A stretch of 64,000 nucleotides of DNA from an uncultured Acidobacteriota bacterium (GCA_963820895.1 CAWGBW010000004.1:10023-74022), one strand, 5' to 3'; positions 7,585-27,312 are shown, counted from the first letter of the stretch. Notes: a model not told the origin generated them from the letters alone. Program-made: numbers and translations.

Positions 7585-7649
7585 GCTCAACTGCGTTTCA
7601 AACTCCAACAAAGAATTGAAAGTGGATCCGACGCTACTGCAGGTTCGCG
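7585..7649 (+). repeat. Weak attC-like palindrome
   Basis: GCTCAAC|TGCGTTTC...GACGCTACTGCAG|GTTCGC. Only the end motifs resemble the family. Confidence 0.3.
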
Positions 7650-7711
7650 TATTCTGCTTACACTTCTCTTAGGAAGGACAGCAGTGCTTTCGTAGGTTCT
7701 TCCAGTTTTCT

Positions 7712-7797
7712 GCCGATAGTCGGTGAAACGTCGGCATGTCACTCATTGAGGGGCTGGCAGGTCAATGGGGGTAAAAGCCCGGTTTCGACAGTCTGAA
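7712..7797 (+). repeat. attC-like imperfect palindrome
   Basis: AGTCGGTGAAACGTCGGCATGTCACTCATTGAGG...GTCAATGGGGGTAAAAGCCCGGTTTCGACAG|TCTGAA. Confidence 0.6.
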
Positions 7798-7828
7798 CTA
7801 GTAGACTGCGCTACGGGGTGCAGTCACG

Positions 7829-8404
7829 GTGCGTGAGTACGACCTGATTGCGGAGTGGTACGCATCGACACGCATCGATACAACGGGAGTACATGAAGCC
7901 ACCGCGCTAGCATCATCGCTCCTGCGCGGATCGCTTGTTCTGGACATTGGGTGCGGAAATGGCATTCCACTTACGAAAGCATTGTTGAGCAGGGAACATC
8001 GTGTTGTCTCGCTTGACAGTTCTGGCGCAATGCTCCGTCATTTTCGACTCAACTACCCCGCAATGCCTGCCGTTCAGGCAATCGTGCAGTCCTGCCCATT
8101 CAGCGATAGCATCTTCGATGCAGCGGTCGCTTGGGGCATCATGTTCCATCTCAATCCGGAAGATCAGATTAGGGCAATTGCGAACGTCTCGCGTGTCCTC
8201 AAGCTCGGTGCACCCTTCCTTTTCACGTCCGGAGACGAGGACTGCCTCCACGGTAAAGTAAGCACCATGAACGGGGTGGAGTTCCGACATTTTTCCTACA
8301 GCATCGATACGTATGGGCGTTTGCTTCGGGATCACGGTTTCACATTGGCCAACGTTCATGCGGATTCTGGCAATAACCTTTACTATCTGGCGAAGAAAGG
8401 CTGA
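7829..8404 (+). CDS. Class I SAM-dependent methyltransferase (cassette ORF)
   Basis: VLDIGCGNG motif I. The stop codon overlaps the AAC end of the next repeat. Confidence 0.8.
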   Translation: MREYDLIAEWYASTRIDTTGVHEATALASSLLRGSLVLDIGCGNGIPLTKALLSREHRVVSLDSSGAMLRHFRLNYPAMPAVQAIVQSCPFSDSIFDAAVAWGIMFHLNPEDQIRAIANVSRVLKLGAPFLFTSGDEDCLHGKVSTMNGVEFRHFSYSIDTYGRLLRDHGFTLANVHADSGNNLYYLAKKG

Positions 8405-8479
8405 ACTGGCGTTATATCGCCATAATGCTCTTTGATCTTGTATCCGAAGTGAGCGTCAGGCCTTTTTCGTCAGTGCGGC
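8400..8479 (+). repeat. attC-like imperfect palindrome
   Basis: GCTGAAC|TGGCGTTATATCGCCATAATGCTCTTTGA...GTGAGCGTCAGGCCTTTTTCGTCAG|TGCGGC. It overlaps the stop codons of both flanking ORFs. Confidence 0.6.
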
Positions 8480-9811
8480 GCGAATTCGCTGCCCTACGAT
8501 GGCATCCTCGCCCGGCTGCAACATCCACACACCCACTACGAGCGTATTCGCATCCGCCGGGATGCCCTGGTTCGGCTTCTGCCCCGTGTTCGGATTCAAT
8601 TCAATCGAAGGCGTCCCATTCCGCAGCTCCTCAACGATTTGCGCAGTCGTATTGCCAATGACCGTCGGATCAAACCGTATCAGCAGATGCGGAACATGAT
8701 TCGCGATCTTCGGTACCACCGTCTCCGTCTTCACCGAAGGGATGGCCTTCACCGCATCGGCAATCAGATCAGCCCGCTTCTGATAGTCGCCCTGCATGGA
8801 CTCTTCCGTATGCGACAGCACCCAGTCGAGCGCGGCAACCATGCCCACAATCTGTTCCTTCGCCACCTTCATGCCGCGGCCGATTCCGTCTCCGGGATTA
8901 TTGTTCGCATGGGCCAGGTCCGTCAGGACTTTCCGGCCAAGCAGCAGGCCCGCGTTTTGTGGACCACGAATTCCCTTGCCTCCGGAAAAGGCCACCAAGT
9001 CAAAACCCATGCCGGTGTATTTCCATAAATTCGAAATCGGAGGCATGTCCGCCGCCGCATCCAGGTGACACGGAATGTTGTACTCGTGCGCCACGCGAAG
9101 CCACTCTTCACGGCCAATCTGCGCGGTCGCTGCGATTCCATCCTCATCCTCAGCAGCGTTGAAAAAATTCGTCATCACCGCATTGCCCGCGGCGCATGCG
9201 CGCTTGTAGTCATCGAGCGTCACCACCTCGGTCACCCGCGCTCCACACAGATACATCGCGCGGTCATATTCATAGCGATGCGCACTCTGCACAATGACCT
9301 GGTTCTTCATCCCGTCAATCGCCTGCGGCATATCCAAAATGCGCGCGTTGTTTGCATACTGCAGGCACGCAGCAGTTGCCAAAGTGATGGCGCCCGAAGC
9401 CCCCGACGTCACGACCGCTCCCTCGCACTTCAGGAGCCGGGCGATGTACTCTCCGGCCTTCTGCTGCAAATCGTGCAACCGCACCGGATGCAGCGCCGCC
9501 TTCTGCACCGCCGCCAGAACCTCCGGAGGCATACACGCCGCCGTCAGCGTTGTGTAAGTCCCAGCCGCATTGATAATGGGTCGCACGCCCAGCTTCGCGT
9601 AGTAATCCTCTCCCTCTGTCTCTGCCGGGGATGTCATCCCCGATGAAAGTCCCTTGGCGGACGAAACCAGCGGCGCCAGTCCCAGCCCCGCAGCCAGCGA
9701 GCTGGACAAGCGGAAGAAGCTCCGACGCGAAAAAAAACCTTTTAATGATTCAGCCGATCCTGACATGTGAGCGCTCCTTGAGCCCGGCAATTCGCGGACA
9801 AATTCTCGCAT
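8456..9811 (-). CDS. SelA/DgaE-like PLP-dependent enzyme with a twin-arginine signal (cassette ORF)
   Basis: SRRSFF Tat motif, and FSGGKGIRGPQNAGLLLG (a SelA-type PLP-lysine motif). The start may be the ATG at 9766. Confidence 0.75.
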   Translation of the reverse strand: MREFVRELPGSRSAHMSGSAESLKGFFSRRSFFRLSSSLAAGLGLAPLVSSAKGLSSGMTSPAETEGEDYYAKLGVRPIINAAGTYTTLTAACMPPEVLAAVQKAALHPVRLHDLQQKAGEYIARLLKCEGAVVTSGASGAITLATAACLQYANNARILDMPQAIDGMKNQVIVQSAHRYEYDRAMYLCGARVTEVVTLDDYKRACAAGNAVMTNFFNAAEDEDGIAATAQIGREEWLRVAHEYNIPCHLDAAADMPPISNLWKYTGMGFDLVAFSGGKGIRGPQNAGLLLGRKVLTDLAHANNNPGDGIGRGMKVAKEQIVGMVAALDWVLSHTEESMQGDYQKRADLIADAVKAIPSVKTETVVPKIANHVPHLLIRFDPTVIGNTTAQIVEELRNGTPSIELNPNTGQKPNQGIPADANTLVVGVWMLQPGEDAIVGQRIRAALTKKA

Positions 9812-9851
9812 GGAAGTCCGTTGCCGGGAGCAAAGAATTTGTCCCCCCTGG

Positions 9852-9927
9852 ACATAATTCTTGAAGAAGACTCCGCTGCTTTTTTTGAGTCGTTCTGAGT
9901 GTAAAGGCCTGGTTTCGTCAGTTATCG
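9852..9927 (+). repeat. attC-like palindrome with a degenerate left arm
   Basis: TTGAAGAAGACTCCGCTGC...TGAGTGTAAAGGCCTGGTTTCGTCAG|TTATCG. Confidence 0.45.
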
Positions 9928-9968
9928 TTTCGGCTAGATGGAGTCTAACGTAAGATCAGGGAACGAAG

Positions 9969-10577
9969 ATGGTTAACGACTTCTCCACCGAATATTCAGA
10001 GCGGAGCGATGACGAGCTTTTGCTGTTGGCATCTGATCGGGCTTCATTAACAACAGAAGCCGCTGCCGCTTTAGACGCTGAATTGATTCGTCGCAATCTC
10101 AGCGAGTCCGACCAAGTTAAACATCAGCAATTCGTCAAGCGGAATGAGCAGCGTGAAGCAAAGAAGCGTCGCCGGAAAATATTCGGCACCCGGAGAGACC
10201 GGGGTGCATGGCTTGACCTGCTCTGGACAATACTAGCGATGGCCCTGATTTCGTTCACCTACCTCGCGCTACCCAGCCGCTACCACATGAAACCCGATTG
10301 GCAGGAAGCGGCCGTGCATATGATGTTCGTGTCAATTTTTATCGCAGTCGTTGGCAGGTCGTGGTGGCGAAAGATCGGCTTTGGGATATCGTTGATCTTG
10401 TCGTCTGCCATCCACCTTTTCGTTGTCCATGCTTGGATACAGCGGGTCGGAAATCCCAGCCGCGGGCAAAGAAGACTCGCGATCTTGCTTGGCTTTGTGC
10501 TGTTCTTTGCTGTCTATGGACTCGGGCGCCTGTTGCGGCGGAACTTCTACGCCACAGAATCTCGTAACCACACATAA
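9969..10577 (+). CDS. Hypothetical membrane protein (cassette ORF)
   Basis: 202-aa ORF with a charged N-terminal region followed by 4 TM segments. Confidence 0.6.
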   Translation: MVNDFSTEYSERSDDELLLLASDRASLTTEAAAALDAELIRRNLSESDQVKHQQFVKRNEQREAKKRRRKIFGTRRDRGAWLDLLWTILAMALISFTYLALPSRYHMKPDWQEAAVHMMFVSIFIAVVGRSWWRKIGFGISLILSSAIHLFVVHAWIQRVGNPSRGQRRLAILLGFVLFFAVYGLGRLLRRNFYATESRNHT

Positions 10578-10580
10578 AAG

Positions 10581-10600
10581 AGAACGAGTACGTTCTTTTT
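10581..10600 (+). terminator. Small hairpin plus T-run
   Basis: AGAACG-AGTA-CGTTCT followed by TTTT. It abuts the next attC-like site. Confidence 0.4.
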
Positions 10601-10672
10601 AGTTGTTGAAAGTCGCGATTTCACTCAAAATCCTCCTCAATGAGCGCTATCGCCTGCTAACGTCAGTTGTGA
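10595..10672 (+). repeat. attC-like imperfect palindrome
   Basis: TAG|TTGTTGAAAGTCGCGATTTCACTCAAAA...CTCAATGAGCGCTATCGCCTGCTAACGTCAG|TTGTGA. Confidence 0.7.
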
Positions 10673-10673
10673 A

Positions 10674-11225
10674 TCAGGGCCGAGTTGCTGCACTACGATT
10701 CAGGGCCAGACGTACAACCGTGACACTGATCCCGAAAATGGCTAGCGCCACGCCACCCGCGATGGACAACAGCGCCCACATCCCAGCCGCTCCAATCGAA
10801 CCTTCCTGACGTGTAATAGTGATCACGGCAAGACTGATTGCTAGTGGCCCGGAACCAGAGGTCGCGACAAAAGCAGCGAAAACAAAGAGCAGGCGTTCCA
10901 CGACACCAGAGCACAAGGCTATGCGCGGCATCAGACGCCAAACAGTCACTGCCATCCCAGTTGCAATGAAAAACGGGGTGACCATGACCAGCAGGAAGAA
11001 CACGAAACCCGCTCGGCCATTCAAATTGCTTGTCAGACGAATCCCACTTGCGACCGCCACGACAGCGCAAAAAAGCGCGAGGGTGATTGCCCCTGTGGTA
11101 CCGGGGCGTGCCGGAGATTCAGGCATTTGGATGTTGCTCCGTGCATAGAAGTGTACGGCGCAGGACGGCAACGTAGTGATGACTGTCGTAACATCGCCTC
11201 TCTCACTCATCGTCCGATTACACAC
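10674..11225 (-). CDS. Hypothetical membrane protein (cassette ORF, start uncertain)
   Basis: 183-aa hydrophobic ORF. The stop lies 2 nt from the repeat end, and the start codon lies 13 nt from the next repeat. Confidence 0.5.
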   Translation of the reverse strand: MCNRTMSERGDVTTVITTLPSCAVHFYARSNIQMPESPARPGTTGAITLALFCAVVAVASGIRLTSNLNGRAGFVFFLLVMVTPFFIATGMAVTVWRLMPRIALCSGVVERLLFVFAAFVATSGSGPLAISLAVITITRQEGSIGAAGMWALLSIAGGVALAIFGISVTVVRLALNRSAATRP

Positions 11226-11237
11226 GAATCGTTCCGA

Positions 11238-11298
11238 TGTGAACTGAATCGAAAGCAGTCGAAATTTGAGCGCAAACGCCTGATTTCGTCAGCTACTC
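11238..11298 (+). repeat. Short attC-like palindrome
   Basis: TGTGAAC|TGAATCGAAAGCAG...TTGAGCGCAAACGCCTGATTTCGTCAG|CTACTC. Confidence 0.65.
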
Positions 11299-11856
11299 GT
11301 GAACCGCGGTGTCGTGAGCCGATTGCCGACCCTGACGTGAGCCTCGGGCTGCAAACCACGACAACAGGAGCGCGACGTTGCCAACGTTCAGCACTGCTAC
11401 GCTTCTATAAGAGTCCATCAATGGTAGAGACAAGAGAGCACAAATCGCGGCAAGGACAAGACAAGCCCGGTCCATTCGGGTGATGTGGGGTTTGCCCGAT
11501 GCAAAACGGACGCACAAAATGCCCATTGCAAACAGGCTCGCTGCCAGACTAAGCATGAGGAGCGGCGACACGTGCAATGAACTGGCGAATAACGTTGCTC
11601 CCAACAACCGCAATGCCGCATAGCCGACGAATCCAACGAATCCCCCAGCCCAGAACCTAACGGTAAACGCCATTATGACGATGCTGAGGATGATCAGCAG
11701 CCAGCCAATGACTATTTGAGACGAACTTGCCGCTACTTGGAGAAGTGTGCAACCGGAGAAAAAAGCAGCCGCGATGCAAATGGCGGCCACAATTTTTCCC
11801 CCGATCAGAAACCCAGATTTAACCTGCTCCTTCACCGGCCGTCTGTCGCGTTTCAC
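11293..11856 (-). CDS. Hypothetical membrane protein (cassette ORF)
   Basis: 187-aa ORF with 5-6 TM segments. The stop codon sits on the repeat boundary. Confidence 0.6.
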   Translation of the reverse strand: MKRDRRPVKEQVKSGFLIGGKIVAAICIAAAFFSGCTLLQVAASSSQIVIGWLLIILSIVIMAFTVRFWAGGFVGFVGYAALRLLGATLFASSLHVSPLLMLSLAASLFAMGILCVRFASGKPHITRMDRACLVLAAICALLSLPLMDSYRSVAVLNVGNVALLLSWFAARGSRQGRQSAHDTAVHE

Positions 11857-11887
11857 GTGGCTAATTCTATTGCTCCGAGCCTCTAAA

Positions 11888-11985
11888 GCCCAACAGGTGG
11901 CGAAAAATCGCGATTACACTCATTGACCGGAGCGGCCCATTTTCTGGGGTCAATGAGTGAAATCGCCTGGTTTCATCAATTGAGC
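11888..11985 (+). repeat. attC-like imperfect palindrome
   Basis: GCCCAAC|AGGTGGCGAAAAATCGCGATTACACTCATTGACC...GGTCAATGAGTGAAATCGCCTGGTTTCATCAA|TTGAGC. Confidence 0.75.
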
Positions 11986-12022
11986 ATCCCTCGGCAAACG
12001 CGACGAACGGTGATGCATTGGC

Positions 12023-12436
12023 CTAACGCCTAGTCCGCCTTAGGGATGCTAGGACAGGCAGTCCCCTCATGGTCAGCAACAAACCCGAACATATCAAACC
12101 GCTTAACAAACCTAGAACTCCAAGAAAGACTGACATAATCCAGTACGGCTCGTGCCACTTTATAAAATATCCCGCAATGGCAGCGAAAATGGTAAGAACA
12201 AGTGGAATTGCTAGAAGCCCAGACCACAGATATAGCCGTTTTTCATCGCTGGTCAAATGTTCCCACTCACGTCTACCGGTCTCATAGCGATTGCCGCAGA
12301 CACAAAGATAATATTCCCGCCCAATGGCCGTGTGCCGCCCATGGTGCGGCGGTGCAGCCCAAAACGTACTCCCACAACGGATGCAATGACGCCGCCGAAC
12401 CAAGATCAGAACGAGAATGTCTAAGATGCCGAACAT
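12023..12436 (-). CDS. Zinc-ribbon plus 2-3 TM hypothetical protein (cassette ORF)
   Basis: 137-aa ORF with CIRC...CVC cysteines followed by hydrophobic helices. Confidence 0.55.
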   Translation of the reverse strand: MFGILDILVLILVRRRHCIRCGSTFWAAPPHHGRHTAIGREYYLCVCGNRYETGRREWEHLTSDEKRLYLWSGLLAIPLVLTIFAAIAGYFIKWHEPYWIMSVFLGVLGLLSGLICSGLLLTMRGLPVLASLRRTRR

Positions 12437-12522
12437 CTGAGGATGTCTCCAAGTGCCATAAAGCGGAAATTGTACCGTGACTTGCCTAGTCTGGTAACGA
12501 AGAGATGGCTAGCAGAACGTAT

Positions 12523-12616
12523 GCTATTTTAATGAAATATCGCTATTACACTCATTGAGGGTTCTGGCAGTCCCGTCCGGTCAATGAGTGTAAACGGCTG
12601 ATTTCGTCAGCTACCA
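12523..12616 (+). repeat. attC-like imperfect palindrome
   Basis: TTTAATGAAATATCGCTATTACACTCATTGAGG...GGTCAATGAGTGTAAACGGCTGATTTCGTCAG|CTACCA. Confidence 0.7.
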
Positions 12617-12621
12617 TCGGC

Positions 12622-13389
12622 TCATTTTGGCGGTTCACTGCAAAACAGGTAACCAGAGCCAAGTTTTTCAACGTCCAGACGCCCGCGTGCTTCGTAGAAG
12701 TCTCTCCACGCATCTGGCATCACCTCGCAGATTTCACCACATCCCTGCTTCTGCGCAAGACACGCGAAGTCAAAGCGCGATGCACGGTGGCGCTCAGCTT
12801 GTGTTGCGCGTGGAGTCAACGATGATTGGAGACCGAAGCCATTTTTGCTTTTGAAGTCTCTGCGTTGAATGGAATAGGAATCTGAGATGTGGGCGTCAAC
12901 TCGCTCGTATTTTGGAAGAGCCTGACTCTCCCTCTGCGCAAATCCCCTCCAATTGCCATCGGACGCCTTGTACCACACCCAAAAGGAATACTGGAGAACA
13001 GTACCGTTTGCCATGTGTATTTCCGCATAACCCCACCAATCTTCAGATCCTAGACGGGGAAGGGATGGATGCCTCAGGTACACCGTTTCCATTGTGCTGT
13101 CGTTTAGGGAAATCAGGAACGTGCAGTTTTCAATGTGTTCGCGTGCTGAGCAGTTCTCTTTGTAATAGTCCCGACCGTCTGGCGGTGGCGCATTACCAAA
13201 CTCCCGTGCGATAGCCTCAGCAGCGTGGTTGTCAGACTTGCCGATTGCCAGTTGCTGAATCTCACGCACCAATTTCTGCGCCCGGCTAACGCGATAAGCG
13301 TTGTCATGCTGTGTATACGAGGCCCATGAAACGACACCCACACCGACGGCAATCGAGACAATTAAGAGTGTCAGTAAAGTCTTTCGCAT
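12622..13389 (-). CDS. Secreted or membrane-anchored hypothetical protein (cassette ORF)
   Basis: 255-aa ORF with an N-terminal signal/anchor (MRKTLLTLLIVSIAVGV). Confidence 0.6.
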   Translation of the reverse strand: MRKTLLTLLIVSIAVGVGVVSWASYTQHDNAYRVSRAQKLVREIQQLAIGKSDNHAAEAIAREFGNAPPPDGRDYYKENCSAREHIENCTFLISLNDSTMETVYLRHPSLPRLGSEDWWGYAEIHMANGTVLQYSFWVWYKASDGNWRGFAQRESQALPKYERVDAHISDSYSIQRRDFKSKNGFGLQSSLTPRATQAERHRASRFDFACLAQKQGCGEICEVMPDAWRDFYEARGRLDVEKLGSGYLFCSEPPK

Positions 13390-13431
13390 CTATCTAATTG
13401 GACACCACGCAATGGTCGGCTGGCGTCGGCA

Positions 13432-14145
13432 TCACCATCCAGCCCGTGCAGCAGGACTTCGGGTTAAGAGGACGCGGCTCACAACCACGACCCACACGAC
13501 GCCGATGATGGGCGAGACGAACCGCGAATAGGCGCCGTACGGTGACCAGAATCCGTCCCTCAGCCACGTGGTGCCGCCCAGCAAGACGAGGACGACGGCT
13601 GCGACCCCGGCCGCGAAGAGCGCATTCGAGATCAGCCGGGCCCGCCAAAGCCCGAAGGATCCGGACATGATCAGCATCGCCCGCGGGAACGAAGTCAAGA
13701 CGACGCCGGCCCACGCTAAGTCGTTCAGTCCCGATGTGAACGTCTGATTTCCTGAACCGGCGATCGAGTACGCGAGGGCTGCGACCACGGTGATGAGCAG
13801 GAGGAAAAGCGCTCCCACCGCGGCGCTGGAAGCGGTTGCCGCCGCGCCCCAGCCGTCTTGCCCGGCATCCGCCAAGGTGTTCCGAAGCGCCGCCGCGAAC
13901 CACATCAGGTTGAGGATCGCCAGCCCGGAGAACACCGCGGCGATCAGGATCCGCATGCGCTCGCCGTCGTAGAACACGACGAGTGCGTCGGGCGACGCGC
14001 CAACCTCCGGCTGATGGCCGTAGACGAGGTACGCGATGATGAAGCAGAAAATGGATTGAATTCCGCCCGTGCGCCACAAGCGTTCCCAGAACGCAGGGGT
14101 GGTGTACACGCTGGTGGAGGATGAGGCTGCGCTGGATGCACTCAT
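13432..14145 (-). CDS. Hypothetical 6-TM membrane protein, visibly more GC-rich than its neighbours
   Basis: 237-aa ORF with a strong SD (AGAGGAG). The antisense ORFs across it are typical of high-GC coding sequence. Confidence 0.65.
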   Translation of the reverse strand: MSASSAASSSTSVYTTPAFWERLWRTGGIQSIFCFIIAYLVYGHQPEVGASPDALVVFYDGERMRILIAAVFSGLAILNLMWFAAALRNTLADAGQDGWGAAATASSAAVGALFLLLITVVAALAYSIAGSGNQTFTSGLNDLAWAGVVLTSFPRAMLIMSGSFGLWRARLISNALFAAGVAAVVLVLLGGTTWLRDGFWSPYGAYSRFVSPIIGVVWVVVVSRVLLTRSPAARAGW

Positions 14146-14156
14146 GGGGATCTCCT

Positions 14157-14296
14157 CTTGAACTCAAGGTGACTTCGGACGCCCCGCGGCCCGAGACATT
14201 GCGGTAGCGCACTCTTGTTGGGCCGATTTGGGGTGAAATCTTAGCTCCAGAGCCGTCGCGAGTCAATGAGAGCGGACACTTTGGGGAAGTGCCAAC
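14157..14296 (+). repeat. Degenerate long attC-like element
   Basis: CTTGAAC|TCAAGG...GCGGTAGCGCACTCTTGTTGG...AGTCAATGAGAGCGGACACTTTGGGGAAGTG|CCAACG. It abuts the next copy. Confidence 0.4.
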
Positions 14297-14379
14297 GAAC
14301 CTGTTGGCGAAAAATTCCCATAGCACTCTTTGACGAACGAAGTGATAACGTCTGCGGCACTGACGTATGCCTGTTGAGA
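14290..14379 (+). repeat. attC-like imperfect palindrome (subtype 2)
   Basis: TGCCAAC|GAACCTGTTGGCGAAAAATTCCCATAGCACTCTTTGAC...CACTGACGTATGCCTG|TTGAGA. Confidence 0.6.
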
Positions 14380-14392
14380 TACCCAACCGGCC

Positions 14393-15097
14393 TTATTTTG
14401 TTTTGACGCGTACGACTTCGATACGCAACATCTGGCCTGGGAGGGGATGGTCCACGACACCTGGAATGATCTGCTGCCTGTCGGGGGCGGTCTTGCCATT
14501 GTCGATCTGCCGATCGTTCCCGTCGGCAACCCGGATGACAACAGTGGCACCGGCTGCTACGGCAATGGTTGCCTCGAAGTCTTCCTTGTAGATGACATGT
14601 CCTACCGAGGGATAGTGATTCAGCCAATAGGTTTGTTTGGGTTCCGAGACTTCGATTCCCCATTGGGACCAATCCACCGTGCTAACCGTACCACCGGCCT
14701 TGAAGTATGGGTGTATGGGGTCAGGCGTGTCTCCCCCAAGAATTGTGGTGGGTTCGAAAATACCGCGAATGCGAAGAGTCACGTCGTACACGGTTCCATG
14801 CTTTCCGCCAAAGGTGAATGAGCGCTCGTGTAACCGGTCATGGAGGCAGGTGTCAGGCTGGGGCGGGTATTGCGCAGTGCAATCGTCGTGCAAGAAGAAG
14901 TGCGCGAAGCCTGCGGCAACCTGCATGAGTTCGTCTGACGGCGTAGCCGGAGCAGGGACACTCATTTGCTCGAAATAAACCTTCCCATGCCCGCAACCGA
15001 AAGCTGCGAGGCAGAGAACAGTCACCGCTCCTCGGAACACCTCTGGCGTGAAGCAGAGTCGGAGCCGCCTGAAGTTTAGTGTCTTGAATGTCCGCAT
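14393..15097 (-). CDS. Secreted hypothetical protein (cassette ORF)
   Basis: ORF 14393..15136 trimmed to the ATG at 15097 (SD GAGGGG). Lipoprotein-like signal ...LCLAAFGCG. Confidence 0.6.
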   Translation of the reverse strand: MRTFKTLNFRRLRLCFTPEVFRGAVTVLCLAAFGCGHGKVYFEQMSVPAPATPSDELMQVAAGFAHFFLHDDCTAQYPPQPDTCLHDRLHERSFTFGGKHGTVYDVTLRIRGIFEPTTILGGDTPDPIHPYFKAGGTVSTVDWSQWGIEVSEPKQTYWLNHYPSVGHVIYKEDFEATIAVAAGATVVIRVADGNDRQIDNGKTAPDRQQIIPGVVDHPLPGQMLRIEVVRVKTK

Positions 15098-15102
15098 GAC
15101 CC

Positions 15103-20210: not shown

Positions 20211-20384
20211 ACCGCGCAGCAATTCGTTGCCGCGTTCGTTCGAACCGCAAGTACCAAACGACTTTTTCGGTATTGATTTTCGGAGTGGAAGTCCCCCGCC
20301 CGAAGAGGTTCATCGTCAGGTTCGAATCGTTTCACCAAAGTGGACCTTTTGACCGACGTTCCTCAGCCGATTGTCAGCACTGAG

Positions 20385-20470
20385 CCCTAACTGTTGATAA
20401 ATCTCCATAGCACGTTTTGACCCAACAAAGACGAATAGGCGACGCAAGCTTGTGTCGTTGCCTGTTAGCA
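20385..20470 (+). repeat. attC-like imperfect palindrome (subtype 2)
   Basis: CCCTAAC|TGTTGATAAATCTCCATAGCACGTTTTGAC...GTGTCGTTGCCTG|TTAGCA. The ends CCCTAAC and GTTAG are complementary. Confidence 0.6.
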
Positions 20471-20604
20471 GGCGTTGAGGAATAAAATAGTCCTCGTGAG
20501 CAGCAAATGCTTCGGCCTCAGCGCCACTGGACTTTCCTGCGCGACCATTCCTCTGCGGTGCAGCGTGCGATTCTTTCCTGCACTCCTATCGGCTACATTT
20601 TAGG

Positions 20605-21405
20605 ATGAAAGGAACTTTCATCCACCGGACGCTTGGCCGCCAGGCATTCGGCCGTGATCCCGCTGGCTATGATGCCGCACGTCCCCCATATCCCGAGTGG
20701 GTATTTGATTTCTTGCGCGGGCGATGTGGTCTCGCGCCGGGTACGGTCACCTTCGAGATTGGGGCTGGGACGGGAACCGCAACTCGTCACCTGCTGGAAC
20801 TAGGCGCAAACCCACTGGTGGCCGTAGAGCCGGATGAACGCCTCGCTGCCTTCCTGCGTGAAACCATTCCACACAAAGCACTCACGGTCGTCGTTACACC
20901 GTTCGAAGAGACAGTGCTGCGAGAGGCGAGTTTTGATCTGGGTCTCAGCGCCACTGCGTTCCATTGGCTAGACGAGCATTCAGCCTTAACCAAGGTGGCG
21001 AAACTACTCCGTCCATGTGGCTGGTGGGCGATGCTCTGGAACGTGTTCGGCGATTCCGGCCGCGCCGATCCCTTTCACGAAGCAACAAAATCCCTGCTCA
21101 ATACACCCTTGAGCCCTTCAGAAGGAGACGGCAACGTATCTTTCGCGCTCGATGCCGAGGCCAGGCACGCATCCTTAGAACGGACTGACGCCTTCGACAG
21201 CATTGAGCACCGGACCAGCACATGGTCGCTTCTTCTCAACGCGGATCAAACTGTTGCCCTCTACGCGACCTATTCCAATATCAACATCCGACCGGACCGG
21301 GAGGACGTTCTTAACGAGTTGCGTCGCATCGCCCACAATGAGTTCCAAGATCGCGTGACTCGCAACATGACCACAAGCCTATACGTTGCTCGACGTCGGC
21401 CTTAG
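20605..21405 (+). CDS. Class I SAM-dependent methyltransferase (cassette ORF)
   Basis: Motif I is FEIGAGTGTATRHLLELGA. Confidence 0.8.
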   Translation: MKGTFIHRTLGRQAFGRDPAGYDAARPPYPEWVFDFLRGRCGLAPGTVTFEIGAGTGTATRHLLELGANPLVAVEPDERLAAFLRETIPHKALTVVVTPFEETVLREASFDLGLSATAFHWLDEHSALTKVAKLLRPCGWWAMLWNVFGDSGRADPFHEATKSLLNTPLSPSEGDGNVSFALDAEARHASLERTDAFDSIEHRTSTWSLLLNADQTVALYATYSNINIRPDREDVLNELRRIAHNEFQDRVTRNMTTSLYVARRRP

Positions 21406-21424
21406 TCCCTCACAGTCACCACCT

Positions 21425-21638
21425 ATCGTAGATTCGCCGCAGCTCGCCAAATCGTTGATGTTCGGCGATGGGGAAACTTGAGCGCTATCGTACCCAGCTT
21501 CTGTTCCTGCAGCACTTCGCCCACTTCGTCGAGCAGACAATACCAGCTGTTGCGATCTCCCAGATCCAATCCAACGGTTAACTTCTGCCGAGAGATTTTC
21601 TTGCTCGGCCTTTGCCGCTACGGTGCTAACCTTCTTCA
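21425..21638 (-). pseudogene. N-terminal remnant of a second IS110-family transposase
   Basis: Hand translation shows an out-of-frame ATG (MKKVSTVAAKAEQENLS), then ..KLTVGLDLGDRNSWYCLLDEVGEVLQEQKLGT.., which is the DEDD N-terminal motif of IS110 transposases. It ends after about 70 codons. Confidence 0.5.
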
Positions 21639-21699
21639 TTGTCGGCCTCTTTTTTATCTGTGCCTTGAGCACGTCGATAACTTGGGAGCGTACACTGCA

Positions 21700-23157
21700 T
21701 CCCGTCCGGAGACTGGCCTTCTCCCTCGAAAACACTTGGCTCAGGCGATACGCGGCTGGAGAGTGACTGAGTGTCCGAGGCTCTCTAAACGCTTGACTAG
21801 GTATCGCTTCAAACCCTCTGCGTGGAGTCGGTCGAAGTAATTGCTGCCCAGATCGGTGTAGGCGCAGCGCTTCCGTTGCAGGTGATATCCGATCACCAGG
21901 ATGCTATGGGCAACGGCGATGATGGCGCACTTTCTGCCTCGACGAGCAGCAAGCTTCTTAAACTGAGCTGAAAGATAGGTGTTCTTCGTGCGAGCCGCAG
22001 CCCATGCGGATTGACAAGCCATACGACGCAACCAGGGACTGCCTTTACGGATCTTGCTGCTGATCCGCTTGCCTGCACTCTCGTTGTTTCCGGGACACAC
22101 CCCTGCCCAGCTAGCAAGATGTGCTGCAGTTGGGAACTGACTAACATCTGCTCCCATCTCTGCGATGAAACTCCAAGCCGCCACACGATCCACCCCGGGA
22201 ACCGTGACCCACCGATTCAATGCCTCCGCTAAGTCCAGGTGCTGTTGCCCGAGTTGCTCGAGTCGAGCGTCTAACAACTCGATTTCAGTTTCGATAAAGT
22301 ACAGTTGGCGAAGCAAGCTCTGTAGAAGAAAGCGGTGATGATCCCGCACCTGGCCTTCTAGCGCTGCCTGTAATTGTGGGATCTTGGCGCGAAGGTGCCC
22401 AAGAGCGAGGTCCGCAAGTCGTTCGCAGTTCTCTTCACCGCCGATGATAGCCGCCAGAATCGCTCTGCCACTCTTACCCAGAGTATTGCTGGCAACGCTT
22501 GCGAGCTTGAGATTGGCATCCTCGAGCACTTTCTGAATCCGGCTTGCGATACGAGAATGCTCCTGCGACAAGCTAGTTCGTGCCCTGGTGAGATCACGCA
22601 GATCGCGAATCACCAACGGGGGTATAAAGCTGCCCCGCAGCAGTCCGTGTTGCAAAAGTTCCGCGATCCACTGACAGTCCTTCGTATCCGTCTTGCGTCC
22701 CGGAACTGCCTTGATGTGCTGGGCGTTTGCCAGAACGATCTGAAAATGACTTTCGAGAACGTTCCACACCGGCTTCCAATAAACGCCCGTGGATTCCATC
22801 GCCACGTGCTCAACGCCAAACCCCTGCAACCACACGACCAACTCTCGAAGCTCGCGGGTCGTGCATCCGAAGCGGCGAATGTGCTTCAGCGGTTTGCCCG
22901 ATTGCGCTATCAGAACACAAGCAGTGATGGAGGACTTGTGCACATCCAGCCCGCAGCACCGCGGATACAAAACTTCCATAGCTGTCTCCTTCCGCCGTGC
23001 GACGTAAGGATGCACAAATCGCGAAAGTCTCCCTCGCGTGCTCCTCTCCGAAGAGAAGGCGACAGTCCGTTGTTCTCAACGGCATCCAGGGTCAAACTCA
23101 TCCGCGGGCTCTCAGGCTCCACTAAGGCGAACGACCGCGTACGTCCACGGCTCCGAT
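21700..23157 (-). mobile_element. IS110-family insertion sequence (ends not resolved)
   Basis: The transposase CDS plus about 180-230 bp of 5' leader. A 14-bp palindrome TGCTCGATCGAGCA at 23185-23198 may belong to the IS end or to the adjacent attC-like site. IS110 elements lack classical inverted repeats. Confidence 0.55.
21741..22979 (-). CDS. IS110 family transposase
   Basis: ORF trimmed to the ATG at 22979 (SD GGAGA). Contains MEVLYPRCCGLDVHK...MESTGVYW and the C-terminal ...PGVD...ASWAGVCPGNNESAGK motifs. Confidence 0.9.
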   Translation of the reverse strand: MEVLYPRCCGLDVHKSSITACVLIAQSGKPLKHIRRFGCTTRELRELVVWLQGFGVEHVAMESTGVYWKPVWNVLESHFQIVLANAQHIKAVPGRKTDTKDCQWIAELLQHGLLRGSFIPPLVIRDLRDLTRARTSLSQEHSRIASRIQKVLEDANLKLASVASNTLGKSGRAILAAIIGGEENCERLADLALGHLRAKIPQLQAALEGQVRDHHRFLLQSLLRQLYFIETEIELLDARLEQLGQQHLDLAEALNRWVTVPGVDRVAAWSFIAEMGADVSQFPTAAHLASWAGVCPGNNESAGKRISSKIRKGSPWLRRMACQSAWAAARTKNTYLSAQFKKLAARRGRKCAIIAVAHSILVIGYHLQRKRCAYTDLGSNYFDRLHAEGLKRYLVKRLESLGHSVTLQPRIA

Positions 23158-23234
23158 AGCCTAACTCGTTTTCATTGGCCGTTGTGCTCGATCGAGCATG
23201 TAGAACTCATCCCATCTGTTAGCGACAGTTGCGC
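23158..23234 (+). repeat. attC-like site abutting the IS
   Basis: GCCTAAC|TCGTTTTC...GAACTCATCCCATCTGTTAGCGACAG|TTGCGC. The right arm matches the family. The left part may be IS sequence. Confidence 0.45.
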
Positions 23235-23281
23235 GACCGTGTGGCGCGTTATCGCGATTTGCCGAAAGCCCAATCGCGGCG

Positions 23282-23791
23282 CTAGACGGTGTCGATTTGA
23301 GCCGCGACGATCTGTGCGAACCTGTCCACGAGTGGAAACGAATCGCTGCTGACTGATACGACAATCGTGCCCTTGCGGAATTGAATCTCGAATCGCCCGC
23401 CATTCTTGAATGTAGACAAGTACCCTTCATCACCAATCTTCAACCTTTCGACCTTCCATCCCCTTGCGACTTTTCCTTCGCGAACGGGGCTTAGGGACGT
23501 CTTGGCATCAGTGCTGGAATTGACTTGAAAAATCATCACCTCGACACTTTCTCGTGTGCCGCTTTTCGAGGTGTGATCCCATGCCTCCACAACGAGGGGT
23601 CTTTGGCTAGGTACGAGGGGCGGTGGCGCATTCAAAATACCCCTCGTGTACTGCCACCCAGGCTCAGTGCTTCGAATTGCGTTCTCGACTTTGGCCACCA
23701 GTGGCGTTTCGGCACGGGCGTCGTGTGTCGCGACGACAAGCATGGCGAGCGTAAGCACGACAATTGAGAGGGTCAACAAAGGGTTTCGCAT
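23282..23791 (-). CDS. Secreted hypothetical protein (cassette ORF)
   Basis: ORF trimmed to the ATG at 23791. Signal peptide MRNPLLTLSIVVLTLAMLVVA. Its 5' leader and signal peptide are paralogous to those of 12622..13389. Confidence 0.6.
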   Translation of the reverse strand: MRNPLLTLSIVVLTLAMLVVATHDARAETPLVAKVENAIRSTEPGWQYTRGILNAPPPLVPSQRPLVVEAWDHTSKSGTRESVEVMIFQVNSSTDAKTSLSPVREGKVARGWKVERLKIGDEGYLSTFKNGGRFEIQFRKGTIVVSVSSDSFPLVDRFAQIVAAQIDTV

Positions 23792-23846
23792 CGTCCTTAT
23801 TGGACACCGCGCAGAGAAAATGTGCGATGGAATCTTTTGCTGAGGG

Positions 23847-23916
23847 GTGTAACTGGCGAAAAATCGCCATATCACTCATCGTCGGGAATGAGCGTTGACG
23901 CCTGGTTCAGTTGCTT
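23847..23916 (+). repeat. attC-like imperfect palindrome
   Basis: GTGTAAC|TGGCGAAAAATCGCCATATCACTCATCG...AATGAGCGTTGACGCCTGGTTCAG|TTGCTT. Confidence 0.75.
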
Positions 23917-23960
23917 TGATCCTCGCGGCATAACAACTTAACAGCCGGACGGAGATTGCC

Positions 23961-24527
23961 TCACTTCGGCTCCATCGGCCCAAATTTGCGGTCGTAGATG
24001 TCAGGGTAGTTCTTCCGGAGGCAATCGGGACACACAGTATGGGAGAAGTCGGCCTCACTGTGCTCACGGATGTAGGTCTCCATTTGAGCCCACGTGTCGG
24101 CCTCAGTTCTGATCTGCTTGCAGTAGGAGCAGACTGGCAAAACACCACGGAGAATTCGGATTTCATTCAAGGAGGTTCTCAACTTCCTGTTCGCCTCCTC
24201 CAAGGACCAGATTGCTTGACGCCGCTGTTTTTCGAGCGATGCAACCAGCAATGACACAGAACCAAAGACCACTGCCTGGACAAGCCCGGCGAACGTAACA
24301 TCCAGAATATGGGGAGTCGGGTCAAAGAACCAGTCAAAGAGGAGAACCGAAAGAAGCGCAGCAGACAGTCCGGCCGTGGCTCCGGCATATCTTGATGCCA
24401 CGATGACCGCAGCAATAAACAACACGTCACGACTGTGGATCTCGATCCGAGAGATAGGGAAAGTCAGAAGGGTGGCGACCACGACGCTCGCCACCACAAT
24501 CGACGCCGCCCGCATCGCAGGATGCAT
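23961..24527 (-). CDS. DUF4118-like membrane sensor module with a C-terminal Cys-rich (CxxC...CxxC) tail (cassette ORF)
   Basis: ORF trimmed to the ATG at 24527 (SD GAGGG). The longer start would lie inside the repeat. Three TM segments, a coiled coil, then VCSYCKQIR...HTVCPDC. Confidence 0.6.
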   Translation of the reverse strand: MHPAMRAASIVVASVVVATLLTFPISRIEIHSRDVLFIAAVIVASRYAGATAGLSAALLSVLLFDWFFDPTPHILDVTFAGLVQAVVFGSVSLLVASLEKQRRQAIWSLEEANRKLRTSLNEIRILRGVLPVCSYCKQIRTEADTWAQMETYIREHSEADFSHTVCPDCLRKNYPDIYDRKFGPMEPK

Positions 24528-24580
24528 AAAACCCTCGGACCGAACCGAAGGGACTGGAACCACGACTACCCGCAGATACT

Positions 24581-24638
24581 CCACAACGGTTGCCGCCGAA
24601 AGTCAATGCGTGTAATCACCTGATTACATCCGTTAAGA
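24581..24638 (+). repeat. Short attC-like palindrome
   Basis: CCACAAC|GGTTGCCGCCGAAAG-TCAATGCGTGTAATCACCTGATTACATCCG|TTAAGA. Confidence 0.55.
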
Positions 24639-24673
24639 TGGCCGTTGCGAATTCAGGTCTCTGAGGGGCAGAC

Positions 24674-25093
24674 ATGAGCGTTCAAGCAGACATTTACGTC
24701 TCACGCGACGACGAGGAAGCAATCCGGTACAACAGCGAGCCAGCTACGTTCAAAGACCGCGAGCAATACACAAGTTTTACGGTGCTAGAGCTTTCGAGGT
24801 TATGGGCAGAGTTTCGAGGCGTCGAGTGGGACGTGAATTCGTTAGATGAATTTCATACGGTGCTTGTCCAAGATGGCGGCGAACGCACCATCAAACGTTT
24901 GCCGAAATCTATGACTGGTGAACTGGCGCGGTTGACACCAGACCAGATTTCGGTTGCTGCCACCAAGTGGGCAGCCACAGACGAGATGTCCTGTGAAACG
25001 GCTGATGTGCAGCCGATTATTGAAGGACTCGTGCGTTTGGCCAAGGCGGCATCTGAGACTGGCCGGAACATCTATTTCTGGAATTGCGTTTGA
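24674..25093 (+). CDS. Hypothetical cytoplasmic protein (cassette ORF)
   Basis: 139-aa ORF with SD GAGGGG. The stop codon overlaps the next repeat. Confidence 0.55.
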   Translation: MSVQADIYVSRDDEEAIRYNSEPATFKDREQYTSFTVLELSRLWAEFRGVEWDVNSLDEFHTVLVQDGGERTIKRLPKSMTGELARLTPDQISVAATKWAATDEMSCETADVQPIIEGLVRLAKAASETGRNIYFWNCV

Positions 25094-25173
25094 TGACACC
25101 GTTGGCGAAAAATCGGCGTTTCACTCATTGACGGAGCACATGGATTGTGGTTGGACTTGGTTCACAGGTGGCA
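25093..25173 (+). repeat. attC-like imperfect palindrome
   Basis: ATGACAC|CGTTGGCGAAAAATCGGCGTTTCACTCATTGACGG...TTGGACTTGGTTCACAG|GTGGCA. Confidence 0.6.
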
Positions 25174-25545
25174 CTCACCGTAATCCCGAGAAACACTGTC
25201 GACGCGAAAGGCGTGCCCCGATTCCACTTTGAACTTGTGGCCGCGCAAAGCTAAACGCTGGTGAGGCTTCACACTGCTCGGCGGATTCGACAACGCATAA
25301 ATAGTGCCATCCTTCGCGGTCAGACTCAGGCCTTTGTCGGATTCTTGGACACAGCCGTCCAGCGACGTGTGGGCACGATGCACTAGATAAATACCGACGC
25401 CCACTCCAACTCCAACCGCAATAGCGGCCCCAATAACCGCTGCTTTACAGCCTGGGCAGTAGGAGGATGCCCGCGAAGGAGACGGTGTTACCAAAACGAG
25501 TGTAATGCAACACAGAACGGCAGTTGTTCTGCTGAGTCGTTTCAT
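25162..25545 (-). CDS. Hypothetical signal-peptide/TM protein (cassette ORF)
   Basis: ORF trimmed to the ATG at 25545 (SD AGGAG). The stop codon lies inside the repeat. Confidence 0.55.
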   Translation of the reverse strand: MKRLSRTTAVLCCITLVLVTPSPSRASSYCPGCKAAVIGAAIAVGVGVGVGIYLVHRAHTSLDGCVQESDKGLSLTAKDGTIYALSNPPSSVKPHQRLALRGHKFKVESGHAFRVDSVSRDYGECHL

Positions 25546-25617
25546 CGTCGACTCCTGATCAATGGCGGTGCAAATGTTACGCCCGCCCTCATCGCAGGTC
25601 AACTCGAGTCAGGTCTC

Positions 25618-25651
25618 GGTAGTGTCCTAATTTGCAGATTAGGACACTACC
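25618..25651. promoter_or_regulatory. Perfect 14-bp inverted repeat flanked by CAGGTCTC direct repeats
   Basis: GGTAGTGTCCTAAT-TTGCAG-ATTAGGACACTACC, with CAGGTCTC at 25610-25617 and 25652-25659. It lies about 75 bp upstream of the minus-strand ORF 25162..25545. Confidence 0.4.
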
Positions 25652-25743
25652 CAGGTCTCCATGGGCGATGTCCCACTATATTCAAGACTTTATATCCCAC
25701 CGACGAATTGTCTTCATGCCACGCGAGACATCCTCCACCCACC

Positions 25744-25820
25744 TCTCCACCTGTCGTAATATCCCCATCTCACTCATTCGTCGTCAATGAGGCAATATGT
25801 CCAATACTGATCAGTTTCGC
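25744..25820 (+). repeat. attC-like imperfect palindrome
   Basis: CTCCAC|CTGTCGTAATATCCCCATCTCACTCATTCG...GTCAATGAGGCAATATGTCCAATACTGATCAG|TTTCGC. Confidence 0.7.
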
Positions 25821-25866
25821 GTGTTGGAATGTGGGACCATCCTAGTAGAATCTGCGAAGGTGGATT

Positions 25867-26136
25867 ATGGCGCTGACAATCGTGGCAGTGATCTTCGGTG
25901 TTTTCGCTATTGGTCTGATCGTCCTGCTGATCTACAAGAGCACACTCACGATGCACAGGGATGATCAGTTGTTTCTGGATGACGCGAGTTCGCACATGCA
26001 CGCGGAGCAGACAGAACTGTTGACCAAGGTCAACCGGCTTATCATCCCCACGCGCGTGTTCGGCGTCGGGTCCGGTATATTTCTTATGGTGCTCACGACG
26101 ATGTGGCTCTACGAGAAGCTGAACGCAGTACAGTAG
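25867..26136 (+). CDS. Small 2-TM membrane protein (cassette ORF)
   Basis: 89-aa ORF with SD AAGGTGG and clean hydrophobic helices. The overlapping 180-aa minus-strand ORF has an implausible composition. Confidence 0.55.
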   Translation: MALTIVAVIFGVFAIGLIVLLIYKSTLTMHRDDQLFLDDASSHMHAEQTELLTKVNRLIIPTRVFGVGSGIFLMVLTTMWLYEKLNAVQ

Positions 26137-26199
26137 CGTCGAGAGCGTGCCACTTGCTTCATCCTGCCAGCATCCTTGCGTATCCAAGATGAAACCCAG

Positions 26200-26270
26200 C
26201 TCGTAGTTGGCGAAATACTTATTACGCCCAAGACCCGTAATGAGTGAAATGGTGATTGACCAAGGCTCTC
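26200..26270 (+). repeat. attC-like imperfect palindrome
   Basis: TCGTAG|TTGGCGAAATACTTATTAC...GTAATGAGTGAAATGGTGATTGACCAA|GGCTCT. Confidence 0.5.
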
Positions 26271-26316
26271 CTGAAATGTTCCCACTCAGTACCTCGGCGC
26301 CAATGTCCTTTGACAA

Positions 26317-26511
26317 TTAGCGCGATATGTCTTTGGGAACGGGTAGGATGAGTTGGCGCCGGGCAACGATCTTCCCCGGGCCGGTAAGGGATTTGCTGAC
26401 AGCCTCAAGCTCTTCAAAAGACCTCTGAATCGTGAACAGTTCTTCCCGAGCGGCTTCCAGTTGGTCGATTAGGCGGCTGATTGTTTTGGGCGATTTATTA
26501 GACTCCCGCAT
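26317..26511 (-). CDS. Small coiled-coil hypothetical protein (cassette ORF, weak)
   Basis: MRESNKSPKTISRLIDQLEAAREELFTIQRSFEELEAV... No clear SD. Confidence 0.3.
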   Translation of the reverse strand: MRESNKSPKTISRLIDQLEAAREELFTIQRSFEELEAVSKSLTGPGKIVARRQLILPVPKDISR

Positions 26512-26580
26512 AGTGCAGGAGAATCCGCTTTTCAGGGCAGAAAGTCGATACGGCAGATGCTGTACTTGCAACCACCCAGC

Positions 26581-26657
26581 ATGACACCTGTCGAAAAATC
26601 TCTATTACACTCATCACGAGAATCCATGAGCGAAATCATCTGAAACGTCAACCTCGG
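26581..26657 (+). repeat. attC-like imperfect palindrome
   Basis: ATGACAC|CTGTCGAAAAATCTCTATTACACTCATCACG...CCATGAGCGAAATCATCTGAAACGTCAA|CCTCGG. Confidence 0.7.
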
Positions 26658-26719
26658 GATCCTAATATCTCTAAACTCGGCTCGCACGTTGTCGAGATTC
26701 GCAAACAGGCTTTGTAAAT

Positions 26720-27112
26720 ATGGGAGGCACCGTGAGAGCAATCGTGTTGGTTGCGGTGATGGCTATCTTCATTCCTTTACTTGAGGCTGGCGGGCAGCCG
26801 GTTTCAGCCTCGACTCTTGTCCAAAATGGAACTCAGGCAAGCCTGTCCACTTTGAATCGCGGATACAGACCGAAAATTACGTTGCAGGCTGCTTTAAAGA
26901 TCGCGGAAGAATACGTCGCATCTGAGCACATCAATGTGTCGAACGGCTGGCTGTCAGAGGCGCGCTTCTTTCTCTACGGGGACGCGACCCAGGGCGGAGA
27001 CAAACAGCCCAGTTGGCTTTTCGTTTGGAACACAGACCGCGGTCCAGCGCGGACGCATGTCGACGTTGCCGTTTCGATGAATGGCAAGGCCATGCTTTTA
27101 CCTGCCATGTAG
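26720..27112 (+). CDS. Small secreted PepSY-like protein (cassette ORF)
   Basis: 130-aa ORF. The likely start is the GTG at 26732, after GGGAGG. Signal peptide present. Confidence 0.5.
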   Translation: MGGTVRAIVLVAVMAIFIPLLEAGGQPVSASTLVQNGTQASLSTLNRGYRPKITLQAALKIAEEYVASEHINVSNGWLSEARFFLYGDATQGGDKQPSWLFVWNTDRGPARTHVDVAVSMNGKAMLLPAM

Positions 27113-27135
27113 ATTCGCCCACGTAGCTTTCTCTC

Positions 27136-27312
27136 TCTCGAACTGTTGATGCCTCGCGGTCGGACTCCTGAAAACGGTAAGCAATCGACTCCAACGCGAG
27201 ATTCTCGAAAAATCCCGACGGTCCGCAACTTTTCGGTTTTCCATCTTCGTGGTTGCAAAAATCTGCGCACTTCCCACAATGGATCGGCTGCCGGTACTGA
27301 CGTCTGTCCTGT
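27136..27312 (+). repeat. Cluster of 2-3 degenerate tandem attC-like elements (right edge of the array)
   Basis: CTCGAAC|TGTTGATG..., CTCCAAC|GCGAGATTCTCGAAAAATCCCGAC...TCTTCGTG|GTTGCAAAAATCTGCGCAC...GATCGGCTGCCGGTACTGACGTCTG|TCC. Confidence 0.4.

Follow-up and report, generated by a model that had tools for sequence, protein, structure and literature searches.

Tandem single-gene modules joined at split palindromes make up a variable island beside a tRNA-Leu gene in a Terriglobia genome

In integrons each cassette consists of a gene plus a whole attC site, crossover takes place at the outer G|TT, and the integrase IntI is a tyrosine recombinase with an extra IntI domain; the open reading frames (ORFs) of such cassettes are expected to be mostly co-oriented with attC. 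The dif site is 28 bp long, with XerC and XerD arms around a fixed centre of 6-8 bp. The pdif modules of Acinetobacter and the arrays formed at dif by integrative mobile elements exploiting Xer (IMEX) are Xer-dependent elements (PMC6449649, PMC11705084), and dedicated insertion sequence (IS) elements target the pdif sites (PMC10132070). Mobile insertion cassettes (MICs) and the Tn3-derived inverted-repeat miniature elements (TIMEs) carry a passenger gene between terminal inverted repeats of ~40 bp without encoding a transposase of their own (PMC4337579, PMC3913671). Here we analyse a stretch of 64,000 nucleotides (the window) from an uncultured member of the Terriglobia (Acidobacteriota; GCA_963820895.1, CAWGBW010000004.1:10023-74022), in which a first-pass annotation made from the sequence alone had read positions 7585-27312 as an integron-type cassette array. 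We find there an island made up of ~21 single-gene modules joined head to tail at imperfect palindromes, each of which is divided between the two modules that it joins.

The palindrome belongs to one repeat family. Profile searches and direct reading together gave ~21-22 same-polarity copies between 7.7 and 27.3 kb, which form the junctions of the array. A profile built from 10 copies yielded ~20 plus-strand matches at 7710-26656 when run with nhmmer over the 64-kb window, and no significant match in 1-7700 or 27000-64000; half and degenerate copies were added by direct sequence reading and anchor scans. Repeat finding likewise returned a left-arm family (n=11) and a right-arm family (n=9) at 7.7-26.6 kb, and the left-arm core ATTACACTCA occurs 14 times with at most 1 mismatch where 1.66 occurrences are expected, a number reached in 0 of 100 shuffles, all 14 being confined to 9.9-26.6 kb. 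The best copy, r06, reads ..GGCGAAAAATCGCGATTACACTCATTGA, a 23-nt spacer and TCAATGAGTGAAATCGCCTGGTTTCATCA... Most units contain one ORF, the products comprising methyltransferases, a GH26, an esterase, VWA proteins, DUFs, many proteins without a Pfam match and one IS110-family transposase; both strands are used, the plus strand by 9 of these ORFs and the minus strand by 12. The descriptive part of the first-pass annotation is thereby borne out: it had placed the palindrome between 7.6 and 27.3 kb, and the ~21-22 junctions lie there and nowhere else in the window; it had given the copies a single polarity, and all window copies are on the plus strand; and its picture of small units of diverse composition, mostly with one small ORF each and with the functions that it listed, agrees with our ORF and Pfam results and with such cases as the GC-rich module at 13423-14315.

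GTDB species-representative genomes were scanned for ATTACACTCATTGA-N(4-34)-TCAATGAG, and at least 120 stretches (8-kb loci, ~0.95 Mb) were retrieved; all figures given here on 120 loci, 393 copies, 242 copies and 255 modules are among the matches listed. An all-against-all comparison of the listed loci for modules common to different genomes or arrays revealed that the same modules recur in different genomes beside different neighbours, with at least 8 independent module families shared between metagenome-assembled genomes (MAGs) or between two arrays of one genome. Four MAGs, each from a different sample, share a PEMT-like methyltransferase module (92-97% identity), one module is present twice in a single genome, and the window module 13423-14315 is 91% identical in MAG contig CAVVQB010000001 (locus L094), where its neighbours are different and the homology stops within the left arm of the next palindrome. 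The homology of shared modules extends from the right arm of the upstream palindrome (TCAATGAG...) to the end of the downstream left arm (...CACTCA[TTGA]), and their spacers and neighbours are unrelated. Since homology runs from a right arm through the gene to the next left arm, the palindrome is the junction between two modules.

The inheritance of the arms was resolved by a linkage analysis of 242 segmented copies with per-position data. Copies with a downstream body in common also had the right arm in common (identity 0.81-1.0 versus a background of 0.60) and the left arm still at background, and those with an upstream body in common had the left arm in common, at up to 0.97-1.0, and not the right arm. 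A related strain (L001, 97% identical to the window) has the last three window modules (25109-27320) in common with our sequence, at 96-97% identity, whereas on the upstream side of the r18 palindrome centre its modules are unrelated to ours. These comparisons show that the unit of exchange is a module with imperfect terminal inverted repeats of ~35-40 bp, with the right arm (TCAATGAGYGTAATCGCCTGATTTCGTCAG..) at its start and the left arm (..CTGTTGGCGAAAAATCGCCATTACACTCATTGA), an imperfect inverse of the right one, at its end; at each palindrome, the left arm is thus part of the module upstream and the right arm part of the module downstream, with a variable spacer between them. The cargo is heterogeneous, 150 modules containing 95 Pfam families of which none occurs in more than two modules.

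The 189 long-spacer copies give the consensus ATAGTTGGCGAAAAATCGCCATTACACTCATTGA, spacer, TCAATGAGTGTAATCGCCTGTTTTCAACAGTT, with conservation above 90% over the inner 14 nt of either arm. The conserved module ends read 5'-TGAG..CTCA-3', that is, they have TG/CA termini, and no target-site duplication was found around modules at any offset. The spacers are self-complementary above chance. Among 8 module pairs with 97-100% identity elsewhere, 4 (L004/L072, L023/L068, L007/L105 and L004/L078) disagree at position 12 of the right arm (GTAA[T/A]CGCC), and a similar G/C toggle was seen directly before the left-arm ATTACACTCA.

The repeat is a lineage-specific one. Acidobacteriota account for 118 of the 120 listed loci (Acidobacteriaceae, Candidatus Sulfotelmatobacter, Korobacteraceae and other Terriglobia), so that the first-pass annotation's idea of a lineage-specific structured repeat bounding modules is upheld, as is, by the comparisons with L001 and L094, the turnover of modules between strains and genomes. 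These loci contain 393 copies, with like polarity in 295 of 304 adjacent pairs. A genome may carry multiple arrays, as in CAWITS010000005, where they lie at 320, 664 and 840 kb of the same contig; a solitary copy was found in ~20 of the 120 loci, and full palindromes were also seen at array edges and singly. Arrays of this kind are widespread in soil Acidobacteria. The orientation of the arrays does not correlate with local GC skew. The other two loci, L055 and L121, are short contigs of one MAG (DATHOK) labelled Verrucomicrobiia, which carry the repeat plus an acidobacterial IS110 end and are probably mis-binned acidobacterial contigs. In 29 of the 120 loci, large Ser/Thr kinase genes (~900-990 aa, with a C-terminus that is tentatively TolB/WD40-like) were found between palindromes, for example at L002 3413-6178 and L097 3700-6666, and these kinase paralogues may owe part of their expansion to the module system.

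The integron reading would make the island a sedentary cassette array, i.e. a cluster of attC sites lacking integrons (CALIN), with a lineage-specific attC on which a distant IntI recombines folded bottom strands at G|TT. Its appeal is evident, because the island resembles integron arrays in having tandem single-gene units with small, diverse and mostly uncharacterised cargo, one palindrome of variable spacer length in nearly every gene gap, uniform polarity, turnover between strains and targeting by IS1111-type elements; IS1111-family elements do target attC sites, and in the best copies an outer stem, a bubble and an inner stem resemble the R and L boxes. The most decisive point against it is the place of the module boundaries, which the first-pass annotation had set at the outer G|TT and which lie instead at the palindrome centre: attC travels whole with one cassette, whereas here the site is split between neighbours, and because the two arms of a palindrome are inherited separately a cassette made of a gene plus a whole attC is incompatible with the data in either attC orientation. 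IntI is moreover missing from the window and from the ~0.95 Mb of related loci: tblastn with an IntI1 query of approximate sequence gave nothing in the 64-kb window and just three weak matches in the 120 listed loci, which are phage- or Xer-type integrases without the extra domain of IntI. Taxon-specific attC covariance models have been published, the one for Acidobacteria being built from 120 sites, with the consensus GCCUAAC-AacuC-GUUgAAGCg...cGCUUAAc-UCGagC-GUUAGGC and a probability above 0.99 for AAC and GTT (Ghaly et al. 2021, PMC8352920). We transcribed the filter hidden Markov model (HMM) of that model, its sequence part, from Supplementary Data 1 and ran it with nhmmer --max, and no match was obtained in the array or in the 120 listed loci (~0.95 Mb), the positive control scoring 65 bits; Rfam holds no attC family. 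The outer AAC...GTT ends described in the first-pass annotation do not hold for the family, AAC being found near the left end of 44 of the 242 copies (18%) and GTT near the right end of 91 (38%). The pairing of the arms that it had described is seen in the best copies, with their R/L-like stems and bubble; the single-stranded DNA (ssDNA) folds of many window copies are weak (-4 to -24 kcal/mol), the arms within one palindrome are no more complementary than shuffled arm pairs (5.83 versus 5.61 +/- 0.14), and RNAalifold, applied to 43 copies from 43 loci, retained 6 invariant pairs and detected 0 compensatory changes, its covariation term being +0.03. It is therefore sequence, rather than structure, that is conserved here. 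Of the 255 modules of the 120 loci, 127 have their longest ORF co-oriented with the repeat and 128 have it the opposite way round, so that genes lie in either orientation, and several to many arrays occur per genome, which again differs from integrons. Among the observations that the first-pass annotation had named as speaking against an integron, attC-model hits are lacking and the repeat recurs at many loci per genome, although it flanks accessory modules and not ordinary core genes. We conclude that the region is not an integron, the presence of one being very unlikely.

Whereas the module structure is read from the comparisons themselves, the way in which modules move is something that we infer. 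A module could be excised as a circle whose joined ends would rebuild one palindrome, and the circular module could re-enter any resident palindrome in Campbell style. The reaction would be a conservative site-specific recombination that depends on site orientation and crosses over close to the palindrome centre, driven by a recombinase whose gene would lie outside the array, in another part of the genome. Over many rounds, arrays of a single polarity would grow from unrelated genes of either orientation without duplicating the target, and the abundant conserved arms could then act as specific landing sites for IS110/IS1111 elements. Recombination of this kind would account for the split inheritance of the arms, for the uniform polarity of the arrays despite the random orientation of their genes, for the full palindromes at array edges and on their own, and for the absence of duplications. 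Taken as a whole, a module island with split palindromes, shaped by site-specific recombination through circular modules, is our best explanation, and we hold it with moderate confidence.

Several observations weigh against this explanation. The spacer varies from ~2 to 26 nt in two length classes and is usually co-inherited with neither arm, and for both reasons the core site of a classical fixed-spacer tyrosine or serine recombinase does not fit. A search for two arrays that differ by exactly one module gave none, single-module insertion or excision was not observed directly and no circular form was observed; nor did any relative have an empty palindrome at the tRNA-Leu/Rrf2 locus that the island occupies. 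Some of the MAGs compared are short-read assemblies; most, judging by contig names and sizes (contigs of up to 2.8 Mb), appear to be long-read, and chimeric joins at 40-nt repeats are therefore unlikely. Several window copies are degenerate, so the window array may be decaying. Pfam scans of 295 ORFs from the loci revealed no recurrent recombinase, and no enzyme for the system was identified. Two candidates were set aside. A 367-aa Xer-like tyrosine recombinase (L029 6238-7341) lies at an array edge, flanked by arm fragments in opposite orientations; it was dropped as the enzyme of the system because its homologue (L078 7208 to L072 140) adjoins no arm and the family occurs in just three loci, the third as a fragment inside an array (L091 566-715). 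In L001, positions 1-3290 have ~70% GC, carry frameshifted SecDF and integrase genes and look chimeric, and the integrase and SecDF genes beside the L001 array were disregarded because they lie within this GC-rich segment.

Two further explanations have to be weighed. The copies could be dispersed palindromes akin to repetitive extragenic palindromes (REPs), bacterial interspersed mosaic elements (BIMEs) or REP doublets forming hairpins (REPINs), each made of two inverted units plus a linker and spread by an enzyme of the REP-associated tyrosine transposase (RAYT) type or by another one. They would then build up in accessory regions, and the modules would be only apparent, produced by rearrangements and horizontal replacements with breakpoints at the palindromes. 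Abundance, restriction to a lineage, extragenic location and the BIME-like pairing of two inverted units across short or long linkers are all shared with such elements; there are many loci per genome, ~20 of the 120 with a solitary copy, some copies lie beside large ordinary-looking genes such as those of Ser/Thr kinases, a dedicated recombinase is not nearby, and REPs too are often targeted by IS110 elements. Unlike REP-like elements, however, these copies cluster strongly in accessory islands, with one per gene in the island against 44 kb of ordinary window genes without a copy, and their arms travel with the flanking genes, the same module being found with both its arms in unrelated arrays. 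The breakpoints lie at the spacer edges and not inside the homologous arms, where homologous recombination would put them, individual arms have no conserved hairpin of their own, and queries for RAYT, IS200 and IS608, of approximate sequence, had no match in the loci. We regard this explanation as rather unlikely. The modules could alternatively be non-autonomous transposons, that is, mobile insertion cassettes with terminal inverted repeats of ~40 bp, mobilised in trans by a DDE transposase that inserts them beside existing ends. Transposase-free cassettes with passenger genes are known (PMC4337579, PMC3913671), the imperfect inverted repeats and TG/CA termini that bound our modules would suit such elements, and in most pairs the spacers look like unrelated filler DNA. 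MICs are nonetheless inserted singly at scattered places, in random orientation and with duplication of the target; here duplications are absent at every offset, the units form oriented tandem arrays in which 97% of neighbouring pairs are co-oriented, not expected of ordinary transposition, the spacers are self-complementary beyond chance, and at an array edge a left arm adjoins DNA that belongs to no module. The listed loci yielded no cognate transposase, the only recurrent transposases in the arrays and loci being of the IS110 family, which is target-specific. This second alternative we consider improbable. A resemblance to the 38-bp inverted repeats of the Tn3 family and an inner, TA-flanked miniature inverted-repeat transposable element were considered and rejected because the flanking dinucleotide is not conserved.

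Returning to modules exchanged through their split palindromes, the closest systems in logic appear, by analogy, to be the dif modules and IMEX arrays of Acinetobacter, with mobile insertion cassettes also close. As in the pdif and IMEX arrays, modules of one or a few genes are separated by imperfectly palindromic sites whose halves are owned by neighbouring modules, and the array itself encodes no recombinase, theirs being the host Xer enzyme; site-specific IS elements are a further feature in common with pdif, and the IMEX arrays also have hybrid sites in the same orientation. The pdif sites differ in being 28 bp long, with a fixed 6-bp centre and alternating orientation, whereas the sites described here are ~70-100 bp long, with a variable centre of 2-26 nt, and all in direct orientation; the module arms bear no resemblance to what we take to be the dif consensus. 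The palindrome-module arrays belong to neither the dif module/IMEX nor the MIC class, from which they are set apart by the size of the site, its variable centre, the direct orientation and the missing duplications, and our literature search, the coverage of which was incomplete, returned no description of this repeat family. It is tempting to speculate, as a possibility that we put forward only tentatively, that the Terriglobia possess an undescribed gene-cassette system without integron integrases, in which single genes, each packaged by a pair of asymmetric half-sites, become circular and enter palindromic junctions; the many arrays thus formed in each genome would serve as a reservoir of accessory genes and as a means of shuffling them.

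The Acidobacteriota rank among the most abundant bacteria of soils, and little is understood of the ways in which they take up and shuffle genes. The arrays stand a real chance of being a distinct cassette system of wide ecological reach; if so, they would provide a second, integrase-independent route to cassette-style genome plasticity, with hundreds of uncharacterised genes per genome held in such arrays, and thus a major reservoir of accessory genes in dominant soil bacteria. A practical caution is that an array in which every gene has its palindrome may be taken for an integron CALIN. In metagenomes, this accessory gene pool can be mapped by means of the junction sequences, a simple marker that also defines the natural landing sites of several IS110/IS1111 elements.

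Elements of the IS110 family were found in 28 of the 120 listed loci, and they are passengers, not drivers, of the arrays. The IS of the window is inserted in a right arm, splitting the palindrome into 21430-21491 and 23216-23232. It occupies the same position as a first group of elements, which have IS1111-type subterminal repeats (ATGAGAAGGCCGGTC/GACCGGCCTTCTCAT) and use an exact right-arm site, ..TGAGTGTAATCGCC|IS|TGATTTCG.. (also written ..GTAATCGCC|IS|TGATTTCG..); related IS are found at this arm position in 12 loci, and such insertions are seen in the window and in L021, L033, L035, L050, L069, L084, L091, L104, L111, L112 and L120. The right-arm site is a natural and highly specific target of the IS110 type; the IS1111 family has been reviewed elsewhere (PMC11187229). 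A second IS110 group (L002, L012, L104, L117 and L118) ends in ..CATTGTCATGGAATCA immediately before the left-arm ATTACACTCA, and in the window a remnant of such an end takes the place of the outer left arm of palindrome r10. The coordinates of these and the other features of the window are collected below.

Features of the island and its borders (coordinates of the window; r numbers denote junction palindromes)
Feature	Coordinates	Strand	Basis
tRNA-Leu(CAG)	6787..6873	+	ARAGORN, Rfam
Variable island, 20.4 kb: STAS gene and ~21 single-gene modules	6874..27320	.	comparison with relatives
Junction palindrome r01, first of the array	7710..7801	+	nhmmer, 52 bits
Arms of r01	left 7716-7750, right 7760-7795	+	sequence reading
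Junction palindrome r06, best copy	11887..11984	+	nhmmer, 63.5 bits; ssDNA fold -22 kcal/mol
Junction palindrome r07	12528..12619	+	nhmmer, 56 bits
Other full copies	8402-8474, 10599-10671, 15490-15553, 16557-16627, 17955-18030, 18443-18522, 23849-23916, 25745-25823, 26203-26272, 26579-26656	+	nhmmer, anchor scans, reading
Half or degenerate copies	11177-11295, 14301-14354, 20386-20482	+	nhmmer, anchor scans, reading
Half or degenerate copies, one arm	9896-9926 (right arm), 24600-24637 (right arm), 25099-25131 (left arm)	+	nhmmer, anchor scans, reading
Degenerate terminal palindrome r22, right edge of the island	27255..27315	+	direct reading; boundary of relatives' alignment
GC-rich membrane-protein module (ORF 13432-14145)	13423..14315	-	homology to L094
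Last three modules	25109..27320	.	homology to related strain L001
IS110/IS1111-family IS (transposase 21741-23015)	21492..23215, ends approximate	-	Pfam DEDD_Tnp_IS110, Transposase_20
Remnant (~40 nt) of a second-group IS end (..CATTGTCATGGAATCA), no IS attached	16540..16570	+	comparison with IS ends of L002, L104, L117
Rrf2-family regulator, first conserved gene right of the island	27381..27869	+	

The setting of the island was examined in 80 related metagenome loci retrieved with the Rrf2 gene. The alignment of relatives ends at 6873, the 3' end of a tRNA-Leu that more than 30 related contigs share with 100% identity, and restarts at 27315-27324; therefore, 6874-27320 is a variable island beside the tRNA gene, and one that the relatives lack. 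The right end of the array as first annotated (27312) agrees with this restart, and its left end has to be moved, the true left edge of the variable island being 6874. In more than 15 of the 80 loci the gap between tRNA-Leu and Rrf2 is only ~280 nt, and others have 2-10 kb of unrelated DNA in it, from which the palindrome is absent. The tRNA-Leu-Rrf2 interval (6787-6873 and 27381 in the window; L126-L197) is thus an integration hot spot. Neither an integrase nor a repeated tRNA 3' end was found in the island; a 24-nt duplicate of the tRNA 3' end is present in L185.

A few minor features of the window deserve mention. At the gathering threshold Rfam reported only the tRNA in the whole window, and nothing further at E<=1 over 7-28 kb, and an exact-protein look-up of two window cassette proteins returned no record. 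Promoter-like TTGACC/TGTAAT motifs at a junction were rejected, their spacing being wrong. Two different cassette genes have a signal peptide and 5' leader in common (13331-13411 and 23733-23813, 73% identity, ..TTGGACACCRCGCA). Outside the island, 28949-29923 encodes a secreted protein of 324 aa with four internal repeats (..DQxxFDKxYxKWVNDTRKNDRDDIxxDIRxMQxIMARNNIP..), and at ~49-50 kb the cumulative GC skew has its minimum and the skew changes sign, which could be a replication landmark or merely a local gene-strand bias.

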